64,000 nt of DNA from an uncultured bacterium. Lineage in GTDB: Bacteria; Babelota; Babeliae; Babelales; Vermiphilaceae. Below, one piece after another: positions 57,135 through 64,000 of this stretch. The stretch lies in the NCBI GenBank assembly GCA_963695335.1, contig OY968764.1, positions 128,001 through 192,000 on the forward strand. Reading direction: 5' to 3'. Every line of letters begins with the position of its first letter. Position 1 is the first letter of the stretch. A program made the position numbers and the translations under genes. The notes under the pieces were generated by a model. That model made no database searches, was not told where the DNA came from, and worked only from the letters and a program-made list of their open reading frames with translations.

Positions 57135-58283
57135 ATGAACAAATTATACATTCTTCTCACAGCTATGTTCTCTCTTTCTACGACATGCATGGAACCAGAA
57201 AATAATATACAAGAAGCAAAGCCTCTTTTATACGTCAACAGTTTTACGAACCCAGAAAAAAGCAATCTTAAAACAGAGCTGTATACAGCTGCAAAAAATC
57301 TTGATACAAATTTCAATAGTTCCCAGCTGACTACACATCGATCATTAATTAATTTCATTACTCTTATGAAAGCAGCCAAAGGATTCAAGATCAGTGAATA
57401 TGATATGGCACACTTTGTGTATTCAAAAAACAAGGAGTACAACCCAATACCTCTTTATTTCCACTGCTTAGAAAAATACAATAGCACAAGAGAACAGTTA
57501 CCTTTTACAACAGATGATCTTGATAATGAATTTTGTTACAACACCAAGCTTGCTCAAGTACTCGCAATCTCATATAAATATTACTCAATGCAAGATATAA
57601 AGGATACAATTAAAGCCTATCCTGCATACGGAAAATTAATCGATGCACTCAAAATAGCCGCTACTCAACGAAGTCTAATGTCTGACCGTGAAATATATTT
57701 TTTAAATAATGCACTCTGTGTTGGCTTACACTCAGGTGCAAAAACATTGTTACTAAATCATACACAATACAGTGAAGTTATAGATTTTGATGGTTTTTAT
57801 GCTGAAGCTTATAACTTACAATATCCTTATTATCAAAACATTTGTCACTTTATTGCCCTTGTTGAACGCTTAAAAACTATAGAAAAAGAACATGATGAAA
57901 AAACTATTTTCTCCAAAATTCTCAATTATCAACCAAAACCAAAAGAAATTTTCGGAATCAAATATGGAAGTTCTGTAGACGTAAATTTAGTTGATCCTTC
58001 TGCAAAAAATACAATAGCTTTGATATATCAGTGCATAGAAAAATACAATCATGAACGCGGCGATAAAGTAACTCCTGCAAGCTCACAATACCAAGCATTC
58101 CTTGCTTTCAAAAACCTTGATATTCTTTTACCAGATAATTTTGATAAAACGGTATTTGATGAAGAAAAATACGCATTTACAGAATTTCAAACGCTAACCG
58201 ATGCTATAACTACCATAAAAAATGCACATGGTGCATTAGAACAAAGCATTAAAAAGATATTACAACAACAAAAAAAATCATGA
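57135..58283 (+). CDS. Exported orphan family member 1
   Basis: ..TTC-MEP; LYTAA, LMKAAK..I.E, L.KY, IEKYN.RG.K.TP, LPD.FD..DE..YA..E shared with neighbours. Confidence 0.75.
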   Translation: MNKLYILLTAMFSLSTTCMEPENNIQEAKPLLYVNSFTNPEKSNLKTELYTAAKNLDTNFNSSQLTTHRSLINFITLMKAAKGFKISEYDMAHFVYSKNKEYNPIPLYFHCLEKYNSTREQLPFTTDDLDNEFCYNTKLAQVLAISYKYYSMQDIKDTIKAYPAYGKLIDALKIAATQRSLMSDREIYFLNNALCVGLHSGAKTLLLNHTQYSEVIDFDGFYAEAYNLQYPYYQNICHFIALVERLKTIEKEHDEKTIFSKILNYQPKPKEIFGIKYGSSVDVNLVDPSAKNTIALIYQCIEKYNHERGDKVTPASSQYQAFLAFKNLDILLPDNFDKTVFDEEKYAFTEFQTLTDAITTIKNAHGALEQSIKKILQQQKKS

Positions 58284-59689
58284 AAAAACAAGCATATATT
58301 TTACTCACAACCATGATAACGCTTTCCACAGCATGCATGGAAAAAGAACGCAAAAAAACAGAACCTTTAAATATTCAATCTTCATCGATAGTGCGCCCGG
58401 CAAATTCAAGTTTGTATTCTATGAGTACCTTAAATGGCCTTCTGCAACCACAGCCATTGCTCACCACTCATGTTACTCGCAGACAATTCAGTGATGTTGG
58501 CTTTGATTATGTTCCTATGTATGTGCCGAATAATACAAATGAAGCAAGCACTACAGATGATATTCCACTTACCCCTCTTTATAGACCAATATCACCAACG
58601 GAATATCTTGACTGCAGAACTAATACTCAAAAAACAGTTCCTTTTTTTCAAGAAAAACAAAACACTCAACATGCATATTTGGTAAACCGATTATATAATA
58701 GCGCACGTGATTTGGTTAATTTTAGAACTTTTCAGCATAATAATATGACCGATGATGACCGTATCTTCACCCAAAATCAAAAATGCGTTACCCTCGTTGA
58801 ACTCATGATTGCAGCTAAAAAAAAAGGTATCACTGAAGATTTTATGGGTAATCTTTCTTATACAAAATGGAACGATCCTACAATATCATTTATTTTTGGT
58901 TGTTTGAAAAAATATATGCTCACTGTTGCCAATACAGGAGAAAAATTACCTTTTAACAGTGAACAATTTTATACTCACGATAATCGTATTCAAACTCTTA
59001 AAGCTACAAATAAAGAACGTATTACTGTAGAACAAATAAAAACTTTATCCCCAAAATGCCCTGTATTTCATACAGATTTATGGAAATCAATCAACAATAT
59101 GGTTGAAAATGGATTGACATGGTGTGTTCCTTACGTATATGCCAGCACATATATTTTATCCAAAGAATATCCACAATATTCTCATATCACTGATATAGAT
59201 GAATGTCTTGATACATTCGAATTAATTTGGCGCTCAAAGGACTGCTATACTGAAAAAGTCTATAGAGCTCTTAATCTTATTGAACAGATCAAAAAAATAA
59301 CAGGTATTACTCAAGAAAAAAATCTTGGATATATTTATTTTCTTAACCCTGAAAAAAAAGAAGCTCTAAAAGAAAAAATTTTACGGTGGCCTTCAAAAAC
59401 AACATATGAGTACAACCAAAAATTTAAGGCACTTTTTTGTGTGTTAGTGGAAAAATACCACGAAAATCGTGGCAATAAAATAACCCCTAAGCCTCTACAG
59501 CACTACATTCATAATGCATTAGAACATATTGCTCTCCCTGATTCTTTTGATCTCAGTCTATTAGATGAAAATTATTATGCATTAAAAGAGCTGACTCAAT
59601 TGATAGTAGATACAACAATTCTGAGAAAAAAAAGTAAAGAAGAAGATATACAAAGCCTTATTGATCAACACTATATTTTTAATGAATAA
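58280..59689 (+). CDS. Exported orphan family member 2
   Basis: ..TAC-MEK; same family motifs; ATGA overlap with the previous gene. Confidence 0.75.
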   Translation: MKKQAYILLTTMITLSTACMEKERKKTEPLNIQSSSIVRPANSSLYSMSTLNGLLQPQPLLTTHVTRRQFSDVGFDYVPMYVPNNTNEASTTDDIPLTPLYRPISPTEYLDCRTNTQKTVPFFQEKQNTQHAYLVNRLYNSARDLVNFRTFQHNNMTDDDRIFTQNQKCVTLVELMIAAKKKGITEDFMGNLSYTKWNDPTISFIFGCLKKYMLTVANTGEKLPFNSEQFYTHDNRIQTLKATNKERITVEQIKTLSPKCPVFHTDLWKSINNMVENGLTWCVPYVYASTYILSKEYPQYSHITDIDECLDTFELIWRSKDCYTEKVYRALNLIEQIKKITGITQEKNLGYIYFLNPEKKEALKEKILRWPSKTTYEYNQKFKALFCVLVEKYHENRGNKITPKPLQHYIHNALEHIALPDSFDLSLLDENYYALKELTQLIVDTTILRKKSKEEDIQSLIDQHYIFNE

Positions 59690-59697
59690 TAACAGTC

Positions 59698-61077
59698 ATG
59701 AAAAAACAGACATATATTATACTCACAACCGTGATAACACTTTCCACAACATGCATGGAAAAGGAACGTAAAAAATCAGAACCTTTAAATATTCAATCTT
59801 CATTATCTATAGTGCGTCCTGCAAATTCAAACTTGTATTCTATAAATACTTTAAATGGTCTTCTGCAACCACAGCCATTGCTAACCACTCATGTTACTCG
59901 CAGACAATTCAGTGATGTTGGCTTTGATTATGTTCCTGTGTATGTGCCAATTAATACAAATGAAGCAAGTTCCACACATGATATTGAACTCACTCCTCTT
60001 TATAAACCAGTATCATCAACGGAATATTTTGATTACTCAACAAATACAACAAAAACATCTCCTCAACCCAGCAACACCTATTTGATAGAGAGATTACATA
60101 ACGCGGCACGTGATTTTCTTGATTACCTAGATGCTACTAACGGTTTATCTAAAAAATTAAATTCTATAAAAGATTTTGCTCAATCAAAAAACTATCAAAA
60201 ACCAGATGATGCTACTCGCAATAACAAACTAATTACGCTCATTAAAATTATGAATACAGCAAAGCATCATGGCATAACTGAAGATTTTATGGGTAACTTT
60301 TCTTATGCAAAATATGAAAAACTATCTAATCCATATGCTGTTGATGCATTTACACCCTTTCTTTTTAGTTATTTAAAAAACTATATGCTCACCATCGATC
60401 ATTCAGGAGAAAAATTAGCTTTAAACACTGAGACCTTATCTTCACCTCATCCTGCATATGATAATTTAATAACAAACATCATAGATATATTTGCAGGCAA
60501 TAATTATCTAATTATTCCTTACTTACATTCAAGTAAGCAAATATTATCTAAAAAACATGAACAATATACCCATATTACCGATATACATACATGTTTTGAA
60601 ATACTAACAGATCTGTTCTCTCCAAGCAGGCTTATGGTAGACAGTCTATACAACTCTCTCACCCTTATTGAACATATAAAAAAGTTAAAAAATATTAAAA
60701 CAGAAAAAGAGTTTGGCTATATTATTCTTACATTAGAAAAACAACAATCTCTCGGACAAAAAATTTTCAAACGACCACAATCTCATTATTCTATATATGA
60801 TAAAAATTACATCGCTATGTTATGCATATACATAGAGGAATATCAGCAAAAACGTACTTATAAAACAACACCTACTCCTATACAATTAATTATCTGGGGT
60901 TTCCAAAAAGAGAATATTCCACTGCCAGATTCTTTTGATATACATCTATTAGATGAAAAACAATATGCATTACAAGAACTATCCCAACTATTAGAAAATA
61001 CAAAAAAATTAAAAAAAACTAATGATTCAGATATGCAAGAGCTTGTTGATAAACATTATATTTTTAATGAACAATAA
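59698..61077 (+). CDS. Exported orphan family member 3
   Basis: N-terminal ~110 aa highly similar to member 2; same C-terminal motifs. Confidence 0.75.
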   Translation: MKKQTYIILTTVITLSTTCMEKERKKSEPLNIQSSLSIVRPANSNLYSINTLNGLLQPQPLLTTHVTRRQFSDVGFDYVPVYVPINTNEASSTHDIELTPLYKPVSSTEYFDYSTNTTKTSPQPSNTYLIERLHNAARDFLDYLDATNGLSKKLNSIKDFAQSKNYQKPDDATRNNKLITLIKIMNTAKHHGITEDFMGNFSYAKYEKLSNPYAVDAFTPFLFSYLKNYMLTIDHSGEKLALNTETLSSPHPAYDNLITNIIDIFAGNNYLIIPYLHSSKQILSKKHEQYTHITDIHTCFEILTDLFSPSRLMVDSLYNSLTLIEHIKKLKNIKTEKEFGYIILTLEKQQSLGQKIFKRPQSHYSIYDKNYIAMLCIYIEEYQQKRTYKTTPTPIQLIIWGFQKENIPLPDSFDIHLLDEKQYALQELSQLLENTKKLKKTNDSDMQELVDKHYIFNEQ

Positions 61078-61109
61078 AAAAAGGAATAGCGCAAAACTAC
61101 TCCTTTTTT
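61076..61109. terminator. Bidirectional terminator
   Basis: AAAAAAAGGAATAG...CTACTCCTTTTTT between convergent genes. Confidence 0.65.
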
Positions 61110-61125
61110 ACTCGCAAACTTATTC

Positions 61126-61332
61126 TTATTTTCTATGAATAAGGTGCATTACTTTTTTATGTATACCAAGTTTCATATATCCAAAAAGCATCAAGCATAC
61201 AGCTATTGCAATAACAACAACATTAATACCTTTTTGAACAAGACCGAGCGCATATAAAACCATCACTATACCAAGCGCAACGCATAGTAATCCTTGAGCT
61301 TTTTCTGGTAATCTTTGAAAAAAATTCATCAT
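61126..61332 (-). CDS. Small two-TM membrane protein
   Basis: GGAAGGG RBS, 68 aa, two hydrophobic helices; TTGACT-18-TATGGT upstream. Confidence 0.7.
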   Translation of the reverse strand: MMNFFQRLPEKAQGLLCVALGIVMVLYALGLVQKGINVVVIAIAVCLMLFGYMKLGIHKKVMHLIHRK

Positions 61333-61401
61333 AAACCCTTCCTTTTTAGAATTTCAATTAATTTCAACCATATATTTTTGTGGGGAGGAGAGTCAAGGTT
61401 T

Positions 61402-62083
61402 GGGGGGGATATGATGAATGTAAGAAAAGATTAAGTCCCCAACTTGGACCGTTGGGGACCCTAAGAAACCTTCGTTTTACTACGGTTGATTACGTGGGGT
61501 GTTCTTGTAAACACCCCACACCCCCGTACACAAATGTTCCCTTTGATCCCTTAGATCATTCCTGCTTCAGACCACAGTCTATTTCATAAGAATTCATAGC
61601 CTAAGTCATCAGACGGAATGTGTAGGAAGTTATTTAAATTTGCGCTCAAAGATACCCTTCAACATGTTCAGGGCGAGCGCAGCAAAAACAACACAATAAA
61701 TTTTCTTCCGTTCGCATTGAGCTCGTCGAAATGAGCGAACGGTTATTTTGTAAATACATGTGTCAAGTTAGAGCGAAGCTCTGGCGCTTCTGAGCGACAT
61801 GGGCTTCCCGATAACACAGCTGAGCGAAGCGAAGTTTGTTAGCGGCGTAAGAGCGTTTAACTTGATAGGGATCCAAGGGAACCATTGGTGTGCAGTGCAG
61901 CCTCCTGCGCCAAGGCTTCGAAGGCCATGGGAGGGTCTTTTCAGGGGTCCCCGACTGTAGCAAGGCGAAAGTTGGGGTTAAGTCACAAGACCCTTTGCAA
62001 AAATTCAACCGTAACGGAGTGAAGGTTCAGGTCTCCGGCGTTAAGCTGGAGATTAATCTTTTCTTAATTTTCTTTTCCCCCCC
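61402..62083 (+). other. Large multi-branched palindromic non-coding island (candidate structured RNA or MITE/REPIN-like element)
   Basis: Three long-range stems (61421-61434/62053-62066, 61467-61489/62005-62027, 61526-61551/61867-61893) separated by local hairpins; contains family A, B and C modules. Confidence 0.65.
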
Positions 62084-62183
62084 CTCTTTAACACCATCAA
62101 CATAGACAATCAAACCAATCAATGTTATAAAATTTACAGCAATCTAAACCACAATTACATCTTACAAAAAAAAGGGAATTATC

Positions 62184-63587
62184 ATGAAAAAACTATACCT
62201 CTCTTTACTCCTCGCAACCACCATCATCTCTGTATCATGCATGGAAAAAGAAAAACCCAGAAGACGCACAACAAATTATGAAGTTCAATTCCCTTCCGTA
62301 AACCCCAGCACCATTCTACCTGTACATGTGTTGAGCACAACACCAACCATACCCATATGCGAAGCAAATCAACCTGGCTGGCAACAGTTAGATCATATTG
62401 CCAATATGACATACAAAAACAATCAATCCCAGATTCAACAATCTTCTATAACAGATGAATTTGAACTTAGACCTATCTATAAACCAGCAAATACTATTGT
62501 TACACAAAAAGAACAAAAACCACTTTTGCACACCAATTCTCTGCAACCTGACGAAGCTGTAATGCAAGACTTGTATAAGAGAGCCGCTAGTATTGTCGCA
62601 GCAGAATATGATGGAAGCCGGTATGCTCCATGGGCTATAAACGATGCACTTGTTACTTTAATTACAGCTATGATCAGTGCAAAAAATAACGGCATATCTG
62701 AAGAGATTATAGGAGAATTTGCATATGAACAAAAAAAAGAATGGCATAGCTACAGGCATGAACATCGGAGCTCCTGCTATCCAGATTCCATAAATATAGC
62801 ACCATTAGTACCTATTACATTTATACTTTTAAAAAAATATAATACAACCATACATCAAACAAATGAACAAATACCGCTGCACTTCGACACTTCTACTCAT
62901 ACAAACCAAAACAATGCTTTTTTAAATACAACAAATGTAGGCGATGAAATCATACAATATCCAGCTTTTTTTCAGCTCCACTATACTTTACGACGCGCTA
63001 TAAAAGAAATTGCATTTGCCAAAATAAAAACTTTTATAACATATGTATACGAAAATAATGATATATCACAAGAAGGTTATTCAGATGGTTCTTACAAAAA
63101 TTTAAACAGTGAATTTTACGCAACCGCTTATAATTATTTATTCAGTGAAAATTCTTTAGACAATCTTTATTCTCTTTTACAAATAATTGATAAAGCAAAA
63201 GAATTGCGTGAGATAAACAATGAAAACGATCTTATTGCCTGCATCAACCCTGAAAATAAACCTGTAAAGGGACAAATTTTCGGCTGGTTTGCCTCGACTC
63301 ACTCTGATGATAATGTCAAACATCGAATCACTCTTCTCTGTAAAGAAATAGAAAAATACAACAAAGCACGAGACTATCAATTAACTCCTACCATACCTCA
63401 ATACCAAACTTACTATGTAAAAAGATTTATTAATGTACCTTTACCAGGAAACACTCACAACAGCGCTCATCTTGATGACACTTTTTATGCCTTTGAAGAA
63501 TTTGAACAATTACGCAAAGCTACTCAAAAATTAATAAAACTAACTATAGAACAGGTAAATGAGCAAATTAAAGACCTAAACAAATAA
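62184..63587 (+). CDS. Exported orphan family member 4
   Basis: ..VSC-MEK; ELRPIYKP, KPLLHTNS, LYKRA, MISAKNNGISE, IEKYN, LDDTFYAFEE. Confidence 0.75.
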   Translation: MKKLYLSLLLATTIISVSCMEKEKPRRRTTNYEVQFPSVNPSTILPVHVLSTTPTIPICEANQPGWQQLDHIANMTYKNNQSQIQQSSITDEFELRPIYKPANTIVTQKEQKPLLHTNSLQPDEAVMQDLYKRAASIVAAEYDGSRYAPWAINDALVTLITAMISAKNNGISEEIIGEFAYEQKKEWHSYRHEHRSSCYPDSINIAPLVPITFILLKKYNTTIHQTNEQIPLHFDTSTHTNQNNAFLNTTNVGDEIIQYPAFFQLHYTLRRAIKEIAFAKIKTFITYVYENNDISQEGYSDGSYKNLNSEFYATAYNYLFSENSLDNLYSLLQIIDKAKELREINNENDLIACINPENKPVKGQIFGWFASTHSDDNVKHRITLLCKEIEKYNKARDYQLTPTIPQYQTYYVKRFINVPLPGNTHNSAHLDDTFYAFEEFEQLRKATQKLIKLTIEQVNEQIKDLNK

Positions 63588-63604
63588 TTACCCTAAAAAA
63601 ACTC

Positions 63605-64000
63605 ATGAAAAATATATATATCTTTTTATTTCTTACAACTAAGGTTACTTTTATATCATGCATGGAACAAGAAAAACCCAAAAGACGTACGAGCTATGAA
63701 GTTCAATTCCCTTCTGTAAACCCCAGCACCATATTGCCTGTGCATACTCTCAGCATGTATCCAGATGTGTTTTATACTACACCAATGCACACGAACAATG
63801 CCGCACAAACACAAACACAAAACATACCTACGTGCGAAGCAAATCAACCAGGTTGGCAACAATTAAACAAAATCATGAATACAAGGTATCAATCTGATCA
63901 ACCTGATTGCGTGCAGGAAGTTGAGCTAAAACCCATCTATCGCCCCGCATCAACAAAAAAAACTATTGATGCTCAAGAAAAAAAGCCATTTTTACCCTTA
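63605..64000 (+). CDS. Exported orphan family member 5, runs off the window (not in the ORF track)
   Basis: Manual translation MKNIYIFLFLTTKVTFISC-MEQEKPKRRTSYEVQFPSVNPSTILPVH closely matches the N-terminus of 62184..63587. Confidence 0.75.
   Translation, partial: MKNIYIFLFLTTKVTFISCMEQEKPKRRTSYEVQFPSVNPSTILPVHTLSMYPDVFYTTPMHTNNAAQTQTQNIPTCEANQPGWQQLNKIMNTRYQSDQPDCVQEVELKPIYRPASTKKTIDAQEKKPFLPL

Follow-up and report, generated by a model that had tools for sequence, protein, structure and literature searches.

What is the two-fold-symmetric island of about 680 nt at positions 61402..62083 of the window, the 64 000-nt stretch of DNA analysed here (G000:C1:128001-192000, from a genome of 1.37 Mb with 35.7% GC)? 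It has a higher GC content than its flanks, and an earlier note had read it as a single molecule structured on the plus strand, whose left and right arms pair in three successive stems. The sequence features behind this reading are present: the perfect 14-bp arms lie at 61421-61434 and 62053-62066, and the second and third cross-arm stems, all of the listed hairpins and the central helices could be located. Of the two homopolymer runs described as flanking the arms, the G run has the given length of 7 nt; the C run is 8 nt long, not 7. Positions 61380-61409 and those from 62080 onward were covered by no other match in the genome. The island was also said to lie between two divergent promoters. 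Its neighbouring genes are indeed divergent (an ORF of 68 codons on the minus strand to the left, one of 467 aa on the plus strand to the right), but the promoter scan gave 3 sites where 3.1 were expected. At positions 57135-64000 of the window, at least five paralogous genes with signal-peptide-like starts stand in tandem, and their number is lineage-specific.

We found that two copies of one unit of 200-250 nt, joined head to head, make up the island, and that four small REP-type hairpins have been inserted into it (Table 1). Its two-fold symmetry is real and is the product of an inverted duplication. From the centre outward, the unit consists of an AT-rich leader, a core of type A or type B, the hairpins S3, H2, S2 and H1, and a T-rich tail. 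A possible base stem between the 5' leader and the linker behind S3 fits many copies of the genus, in which competing pairings exist as well. Against a covariance model of the whole arm (R1), the left copy scored an E value of 3.6e-25, being itself a member of the training set. The hairpins at equivalent positions of the two arms had been taken for unrelated sequences. For neither pair was this borne out: the outer ones are homologues, joined in the alignment by intermediates and compensatory changes, and the inner right one, when compared with the uninterrupted copy at 120 kb of the same genome, is the homologue of the left one plus two inserted small repeats. The two small repeats inserted in the right arm occur at 19 and 5 places in the genome, and a double insertion closely similar to that of the right H2 was seen in two loci of a related genome (G005; L002, L017). 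Mean column identity of the unit was 64% within the genus and 49%, with no invariant column, within the family. The termini are its least conserved part, and its ends are fuzzy.

Table 1. Features of the island and its flanks (positions in the window)
Feature	Position	Strand	Remarks
Left flanking host gene, 68 codons, small hydrophobic protein	61126..61332	-	element upstream of gene
G7 run outside the repeated unit	61402..61408	+	partner: C8 run 62077-62084
Left unit copy, outward: leader, core A, S3, H2, S2, H1, tail	61421..61634	-	better fold on minus
Left H1 hairpin (61435-61459) and T-rich tail (61421-61434)	61421..61459	-	terminator-like on outward strand
Left S2 hairpin, half of the second cross-arm stem	61467..61489	-	compensatory pairs, alignment columns 85-102
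Left H2 hairpin	61494..61519	-	
Left S3 hairpin, within the third cross-arm stem	61531..61545	-	
Core A, long interrupted hairpin: tandem G-A pairs, invariant G-T pairs	61557..61620	-	
REP1, inserted high-copy REP-type hairpin	61642..61681		about 110 genome copies (109-113)
REP2, inserted REP-type hairpin	61708..61742		about 36-40 copies
Right unit copy, outward: leader, core B, S3, H2 (interrupted), S2, H1, tail	61747..62066	+	better fold on plus
Core B, three-way junction	61763..61865	+	
Right S3 hairpin	61873..61888	+	
REP3, 31-nt insertion at base of H2	61901..61931		19 related genome places; missing from the otherwise matching G000 120 kb copy
Right H2 hairpin, contains 47-nt hairpin insertion (61938-61984)	61932..61994	+	
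Right S2 hairpin	62005..62027	+	
Right H1 hairpin (62032-62052) and T-rich tail (62053-62066)	62032..62066	+	terminator-like on outward strand
Right flanking host gene, 467 aa, member of local paralogue array	62184..63587	+	

As a whole, the island folds far beyond chance, but equally so on both strands: z was -9.0 (plus) and -8.2 (minus) with RNA parameters and -12.3 (plus) and -12.7 (minus) with DNA parameters, and 0 of 20 shuffles was as good on either strand in either case. The halves, folded separately, preferred opposite strands. For the left half z was -5.4 on minus versus -2.6 on plus, and for the right half -5.1 on plus versus +0.1 on minus. Among 39 units the outward strand had the lower energy in 39 (RNA parameters) or 38 (DNA parameters), and it had the better z in 21 of 29. 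Its stems held 298 G-T pairs among 2069 (14%), those of the inward strand 77 among 1773. A plus-strand G-U bias between the arms, claimed in the earlier note, found no support: over 17 doublets, an automatic alignment that is noisy where arms have insertions, as they do in the window's copy, gave 99 G-T versus 109 A-C mismatches. Counted by hand on the plus strand, the two mismatched stems of the window have 5 G-T versus 2 A-C, plus one A-G and one T-C.

We next considered which pairings are kept. Of 20 pairs predicted within the arm, 16 were compensatory in 35 arms. The shuffle controls for individual hairpins ignore kinship among related sequences and so overstate significance, which applies to each of the following scores: core A, with 11 of 19 pairs compensatory, scored 0.376 versus 0.167 when shuffled (0 of 500 shuffles as good); core B, with 10 of 19, scored 0.527 versus 0.212; and S3, with 6 of 6 in 48 distinct sequences from many genera, scored 0.681 versus 0.183. 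Slid controls for S3 scored at most 0.159. Where the local hairpins covary, pairing between the arms is disrupted; in the third cross-arm stem, a single compensatory change within S3 accounts for both mismatches, the A-G on one side and the T-C on the other. We conclude that the long cross-arm stems are a by-product of the inversion, an alternative fold under no detectable selection. Compensatory changes preserve a strand-specific series of hairpins in the unit; structure is thus retained while sequence diverges, as had been proposed, within the arms. The proposed 680-nt plus-strand molecule resolves into two inverted copies of 200-250 nt, each structured on its own outward strand.

The unit is present in multiple copies, paired and solo, differs in presence among sister species, swaps modules and collects small repeats and insertion sequences. 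A search for homologous arms, as envisaged in the earlier note, recovered 12 arms at 8 loci of G000, comprising four pairs (8 arms) and four solos, and more across the phylum. Core A of the window is 97% identical to that of the copy at 77 kb, and core B is 96-97% identical to those of the copies at 116 kb and 120 kb. Cores of the same type elsewhere in the genome carry different hairpin variants, which indicates that modules are mixed between copies. The syntenic site was empty in all five relatives of the genus (G005, G002, G008, G010 and G004). All five have a homologue of the 68-codon gene, in none of them with the element upstream, and G005, G002 and G008 have a similar gene at the position of the 467-aa ORF, likewise with no element in front. 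Conversely, some sites that are filled in relatives are empty in G000, beside genes that we take from their translations to be priA, mreB, DNA ligase, secA and lepA. Six other sites were common to several species; at five of them, G000 or G005 shared the site with one or more further genomes. Because some sites vary in occupancy and others are shared between species, copies evidently both move and persist. No target duplication was definable between filled and empty sites of the compared species, which are too diverged.

In 32 of 40 arms the tail pointed towards the stop codon of a convergent gene, 19 times at a distance of at most 60 nt. One of these 32, the left arm of the window, is a misclassification, since the 68-codon ORF next to it fell under the length cut. 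The window's site between divergent genes is the rarer setting. The genes enclosed by widely spaced or clustered units are ordinary host genes. In G062 the unit forms tandem arrays with a period of 229 nt, and one hybrid H2 hairpin of this genome (L158:1890-1925) looks as if the two inverted H2 copies had recombined and the interior had been lost. G001 stands alone in the genus in having yielded neither a unit nor a small GIY-YIG candidate nor any match to the REPs of the island; its assembly consists of 30 contigs.

The central helices at 61642-61681 and 61708-61742 are insertions of high-copy REPs, REP1 and REP2, which may resemble the CGTC class. The island is therefore tied to the genome's repeats, as the earlier note had supposed, but it is not the master copy of the small REPs. 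Other insertions were observed around units and REPs. An insertion sequence with a DDE-like transposase ORF, inverted ends of 16-17 bp and a 12-bp target duplication lies in the H2 loop of one unit (L050, G000:C1:1188580-1190070), and similar ends occur inside a doublet of G009 (L038). There are three matching IS110-family copies (G000:C1:689797, 1208179 and 1354341; L043-L045). The last of these is inserted within REP1, and part of its 5' non-coding end matches this repeat, which is what the target loop of a bridge RNA should do. At G000:C1:77297-77400 (L016), a REP1 that contains a nested REP3 forms the in-frame beginning of a 433-aa ORF, in the manner of Rickettsia palindromic elements. Three near-identical IS200-type elements carry tnpA only and end hairpins of their own (L021-L023; G000:C1:369218, 574578 and 1166633); TnpB was not found in this genome.

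How far does the unit reach? Model R1 matched 26 of 80 genomes of the family. A second model confined to the two hairpins S3 and H2 (R2), in whose seed alignment the H2 register is imperfect, matched 40 of 151 genomes of the order, in 13 of 21 families, and 44 of 151 genomes of the phylum with 1-21 copies each. With this model, unrelated loci encoding transposases, nucleases and RTs, 178 kb in all, gave 0 matches. In distant copies leader, core, S3 and H2 are kept and the ends differ; head-to-head pairs recur in families f1, f5 and f13. Outside the phylum nothing was found with blastn and exact-pattern scans, which are insensitive tools. Plasmid and phage collections gave no match by distant blastn. 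In IMG/VR the pattern scans, insensitive because exact, returned only 1 match, judged to be chance, within an integrase-like ORF; equally insensitive scans of GTDB returned 0 and then 8 matches versus about 6 expected by estimate, none with the H2 hairpin. Our literature search, which left subscription journals and bioRxiv supplements, including ssDNA-motif tables, largely uncovered, returned no description of these repeats in this lineage. The accessible part of PMC8632094 concerns an attC-like motif.

No mobilising enzyme was found, and of six families tested none tracks the unit closely enough. Enzyme occurrence was compared between 44 unit-positive and 107 unit-negative genomes, phylum samples with identical family denominators. 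A Y1 transposase was present in 17 of the 44 and 36 of the 107, and no unit lay near any Y1 locus searched. No RAYT gene was flanked by the unit, and several unit-bearing single-contig genomes had none. IS110 occurred in 6 and RT in 5 of the 44, with no RT in G000. The TrwC domain gave 0 of 151 phylum genomes, its control being positive in E. coli, and Y2 and Rep_1 gave 0 of 5 genomes in a search whose controls were silent everywhere. The REP-linked small GIY-YIG family showed a modest excess (27 of 44 versus 39 of 107) and was not found in the unit-rich genomes G062, G093, G149 and G160. In G000, three small stand-alone GIY-YIG genes (G000:C1:565524-565808, 205106-205318 and 895128-895328; L024-L026) are flanked by REP1- or REP3-like hairpins. 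For that reason we regard them as candidate mobilisers of the inserted REPs rather than of the unit. No ORF recurring beside units was found, and a metagenome scan yielded 5 loci, all carrying the unit and none with a partner ORF.

We consider it reasonably probable that the island is one insertion of a REPIN-like, non-autonomous ssDNA mobile element whose arms are much larger than those of known REPINs and multi-domain. Two inverted copies of 200-250 nt would share an AT-rich centre and would have been inserted as one element. The folded form that matters may be ssDNA, the outward strand of each arm, exposed at the replication fork or by strand displacement. As has been proposed for REPINs, a hypothetical HUH-type enzyme acting in trans, either a single-strand nuclease or a transposase, would then recognise S3, H2 and the core; it would duplicate the unit and insert the new copy into AT-rich gaps, in most cases a short way past a stop codon. 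More tentatively, and with rather less confidence than an even chance would imply, the unit may stand for a phylum-wide class of non-coding, multi-domain folded ssDNA mobile elements, moved by an enzyme outside the RAYT/IS200, IS91, MOBF, IS110 and RT families or by host replication proteins alone.

If the arms act as RNA instead, each would be a gene for a structured ncRNA of 200-250 nt, reading outward from the AT-rich centre to H1 and a U-tail and spread as a passenger or via an RNA intermediate. Several features fit RNA too: strong strand-specific covariation with its many G-U pairs, the tandem G-A pairs and three-way junction, terminator-like 3' ends on both outward strands, and GNRA tetraloops at about three times the background (37 of 347 versus 3.5%). 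The loops as a whole point the other way. S3 is family-wide a 6-bp stem with a GNA loop, and in 34 of 48 sequences this loop is GAA (13), GCA (11) or GGA (10). Among the perfect-stem triloops of 163 distinct units (173 minus one with N and nine duplicates, with some inserted REPs included), GNA made up 139 of 387 outward and numbered 17 inward, compared with 6% genome-wide; it thus outnumbers GNRA tetraloops, and UNCG was seen only 6 times. According to the accessible part of PMC13037366, GNA mini-hairpins are far more stable in DNA than in RNA and occur at ssDNA priming sites and promoters. Inspection of the regions upstream of 81 units, some of whose starts are mis-called, gave no -10/-35 at a fixed distance (no statistic was computed), and the region where a -35 would lie is often occupied by a REP or by the opposite unit. 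Three contig sets that may derive from RNA contained only short pieces of related organisms, which bear on neither reading. The H1 and T-tail end was seen in the window's genus; in most of the more distant copies an A-run or a different hairpin stands at the end. The lack of an RT in G000 and the units' tolerance of REP and IS insertions also speak against an RNA gene. Rfam gave no gathering-score match in the window (at E<=10 only sub-threshold noise), in line with the earlier note's recognising no known family, and over units including 20 loci from distant genomes only tRNAs reached the threshold, outside the units. The earlier note was right that the functional form is single-stranded; ssDNA is quite probably that form, ahead of RNA, and an ncRNA gene in each arm is rather unlikely.

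A passive pile-up, in which palindromes are amplified by slippage, template switching and gene conversion with no selection on a fold and no dedicated enzyme, would suit the four REPs in the window's copy, the arrays and hybrid hairpins of G062, which resemble products of slippage or recombination, and the fruitless enzyme search. We judge it improbable. The unit is an ordered and asymmetric series of hairpins in which dozens of changes compensate one another across 13 families; its G-T pairs and loops are strand-specific, and new insertions are dispersed over unrelated loci. It is very improbable that S3 and the G/T-rich linker behind it mimic an oriT for the relaxase of a visiting conjugative plasmid. 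A hairpin followed by a GT-rich stretch does resemble the layout of the F oriT as given in the accessible part of PMC3074121, most closely in G007 copies, but the linker is variable and pairs partly into H2, the phylum genomes searched lack the TrwC domain, and plasmids and phages gave no match. Least credible of all is the single 680-nt plus-strand RNA, or REP-system master copy, held together by the cross-arm stems. The minimum-energy structure of the whole island does have this shape and is slightly better on plus. Against it, the halves prefer opposite strands, solo arms are common, the contents differ in every copy and the site is empty in relatives; the cross-arm mismatches have no strand bias, and two of them belong to one local compensatory pair. 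We therefore retain the REPIN-like ssDNA element as the preferred reading. Such elements, we caution, pass every screen for a 'new large ncRNA'.

Several known motifs were compared with the unit and rejected. The hammerhead consensus has an invariant catalytic core, an NUH cleavage triplet and a stem I. A core-like heptamer and GAAA flank the stem in a few copies of G009 and G003 only; elsewhere the heptamer varies, and by inspection triplet and stem I are missing. Kink-turns have tandem G-A pairs next to a 3-nt bulge; the tandem G-A pairs of core A are flanked by pairing on both sides, with no bulge. CsrB/RsmZ-type sRNAs have repeated GGA loops, and a unit has a single loop of this kind, GGA in 10 of 48. 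As to IS110 bridge or seek RNAs, the three IS110 loci of G000 held no unit, and few unit-positive genomes have IS110 at all. A MOBF oriT has a conserved nic sequence and a TrwC/TraI relaxase; the linker of the unit is variable, and no TrwC domain was found in the 151 genomes. No Rfam family matched a unit at its gathering score.

Among mobile elements, the IS91 family and Helitrons, which move by a rolling circle, are asymmetric, have 3' hairpins that vary, land in AT-rich sites, form tandem arrays and leave no evident target duplication. The present unit resembles them in all of these respects; it may differ in its enzyme, as no Y2 or Rep protein turned up in the five genomes searched, with silent controls. 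To our knowledge, head-to-head pairing is not typical of rolling-circle transposons. MITEs of DDE transposons have short, conserved inverted repeats at their termini and a target-site duplication; in the unit the termini are the least conserved part, and comparing occupied with vacant sites in the diverged species showed no duplication. The G4 origin, ssiA and the N4 promoters, as described in the accessible part of PMC13037366, likewise are strand-specific hairpins with GNA or GNNA loops; they are fixed cis-elements of phages and plasmids, whereas the unit recurs at dispersed chromosomal sites and matched no phage or plasmid.

The closest likeness is to REPINs. As far as the accessible part of Bertels and Rainey (2011, PMC3116915) describes them, these too are inverted doublets with a spacer, extragenic and non-coding, occur as doublets, singlets and arrays, show compensatory changes and nested unrelated repeats, and can adopt two alternative folds, a long hairpin or separate arms. 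Like REPINs, the unit is extragenic, dispersed and polymorphic. It differs from that description in its multi-domain arms of 200-250 nt, in place of short REPs with a highly conserved 16-mer, in covariation within rather than between arms, in having no RAYT gene flanked by the repeat, and in its 1-21 copies per genome versus about a hundred. The GTAG- and CGTC-tagged REPs and TIRtron TIRs treated in the accessible part of Di Nocera et al. (2013, PMC3733652) similarly form hetero- and homodimers, with REP dimers inside longer palindromes, and lie just behind stop codons between convergent genes, the usual REP pattern; CGTC families also occur with no known transposase. Neither a GTAG nor a CGTC tag is visible at the ends of the unit, whose length is 5-10 times theirs. 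REPINs and REPs known so far are short and simple, whereas here compensatory change has preserved a multi-branched fold of 200-250 nt with DNA-type loops over 13 families of one order. The fold has meanwhile hopped from site to site, and none of the known transposase classes goes with it. This makes the unit a well-defined substrate for seeking an unknown single-strand DNA enzyme, the same question that the CGTC-type REPs pose (PMC3733652, accessible part).
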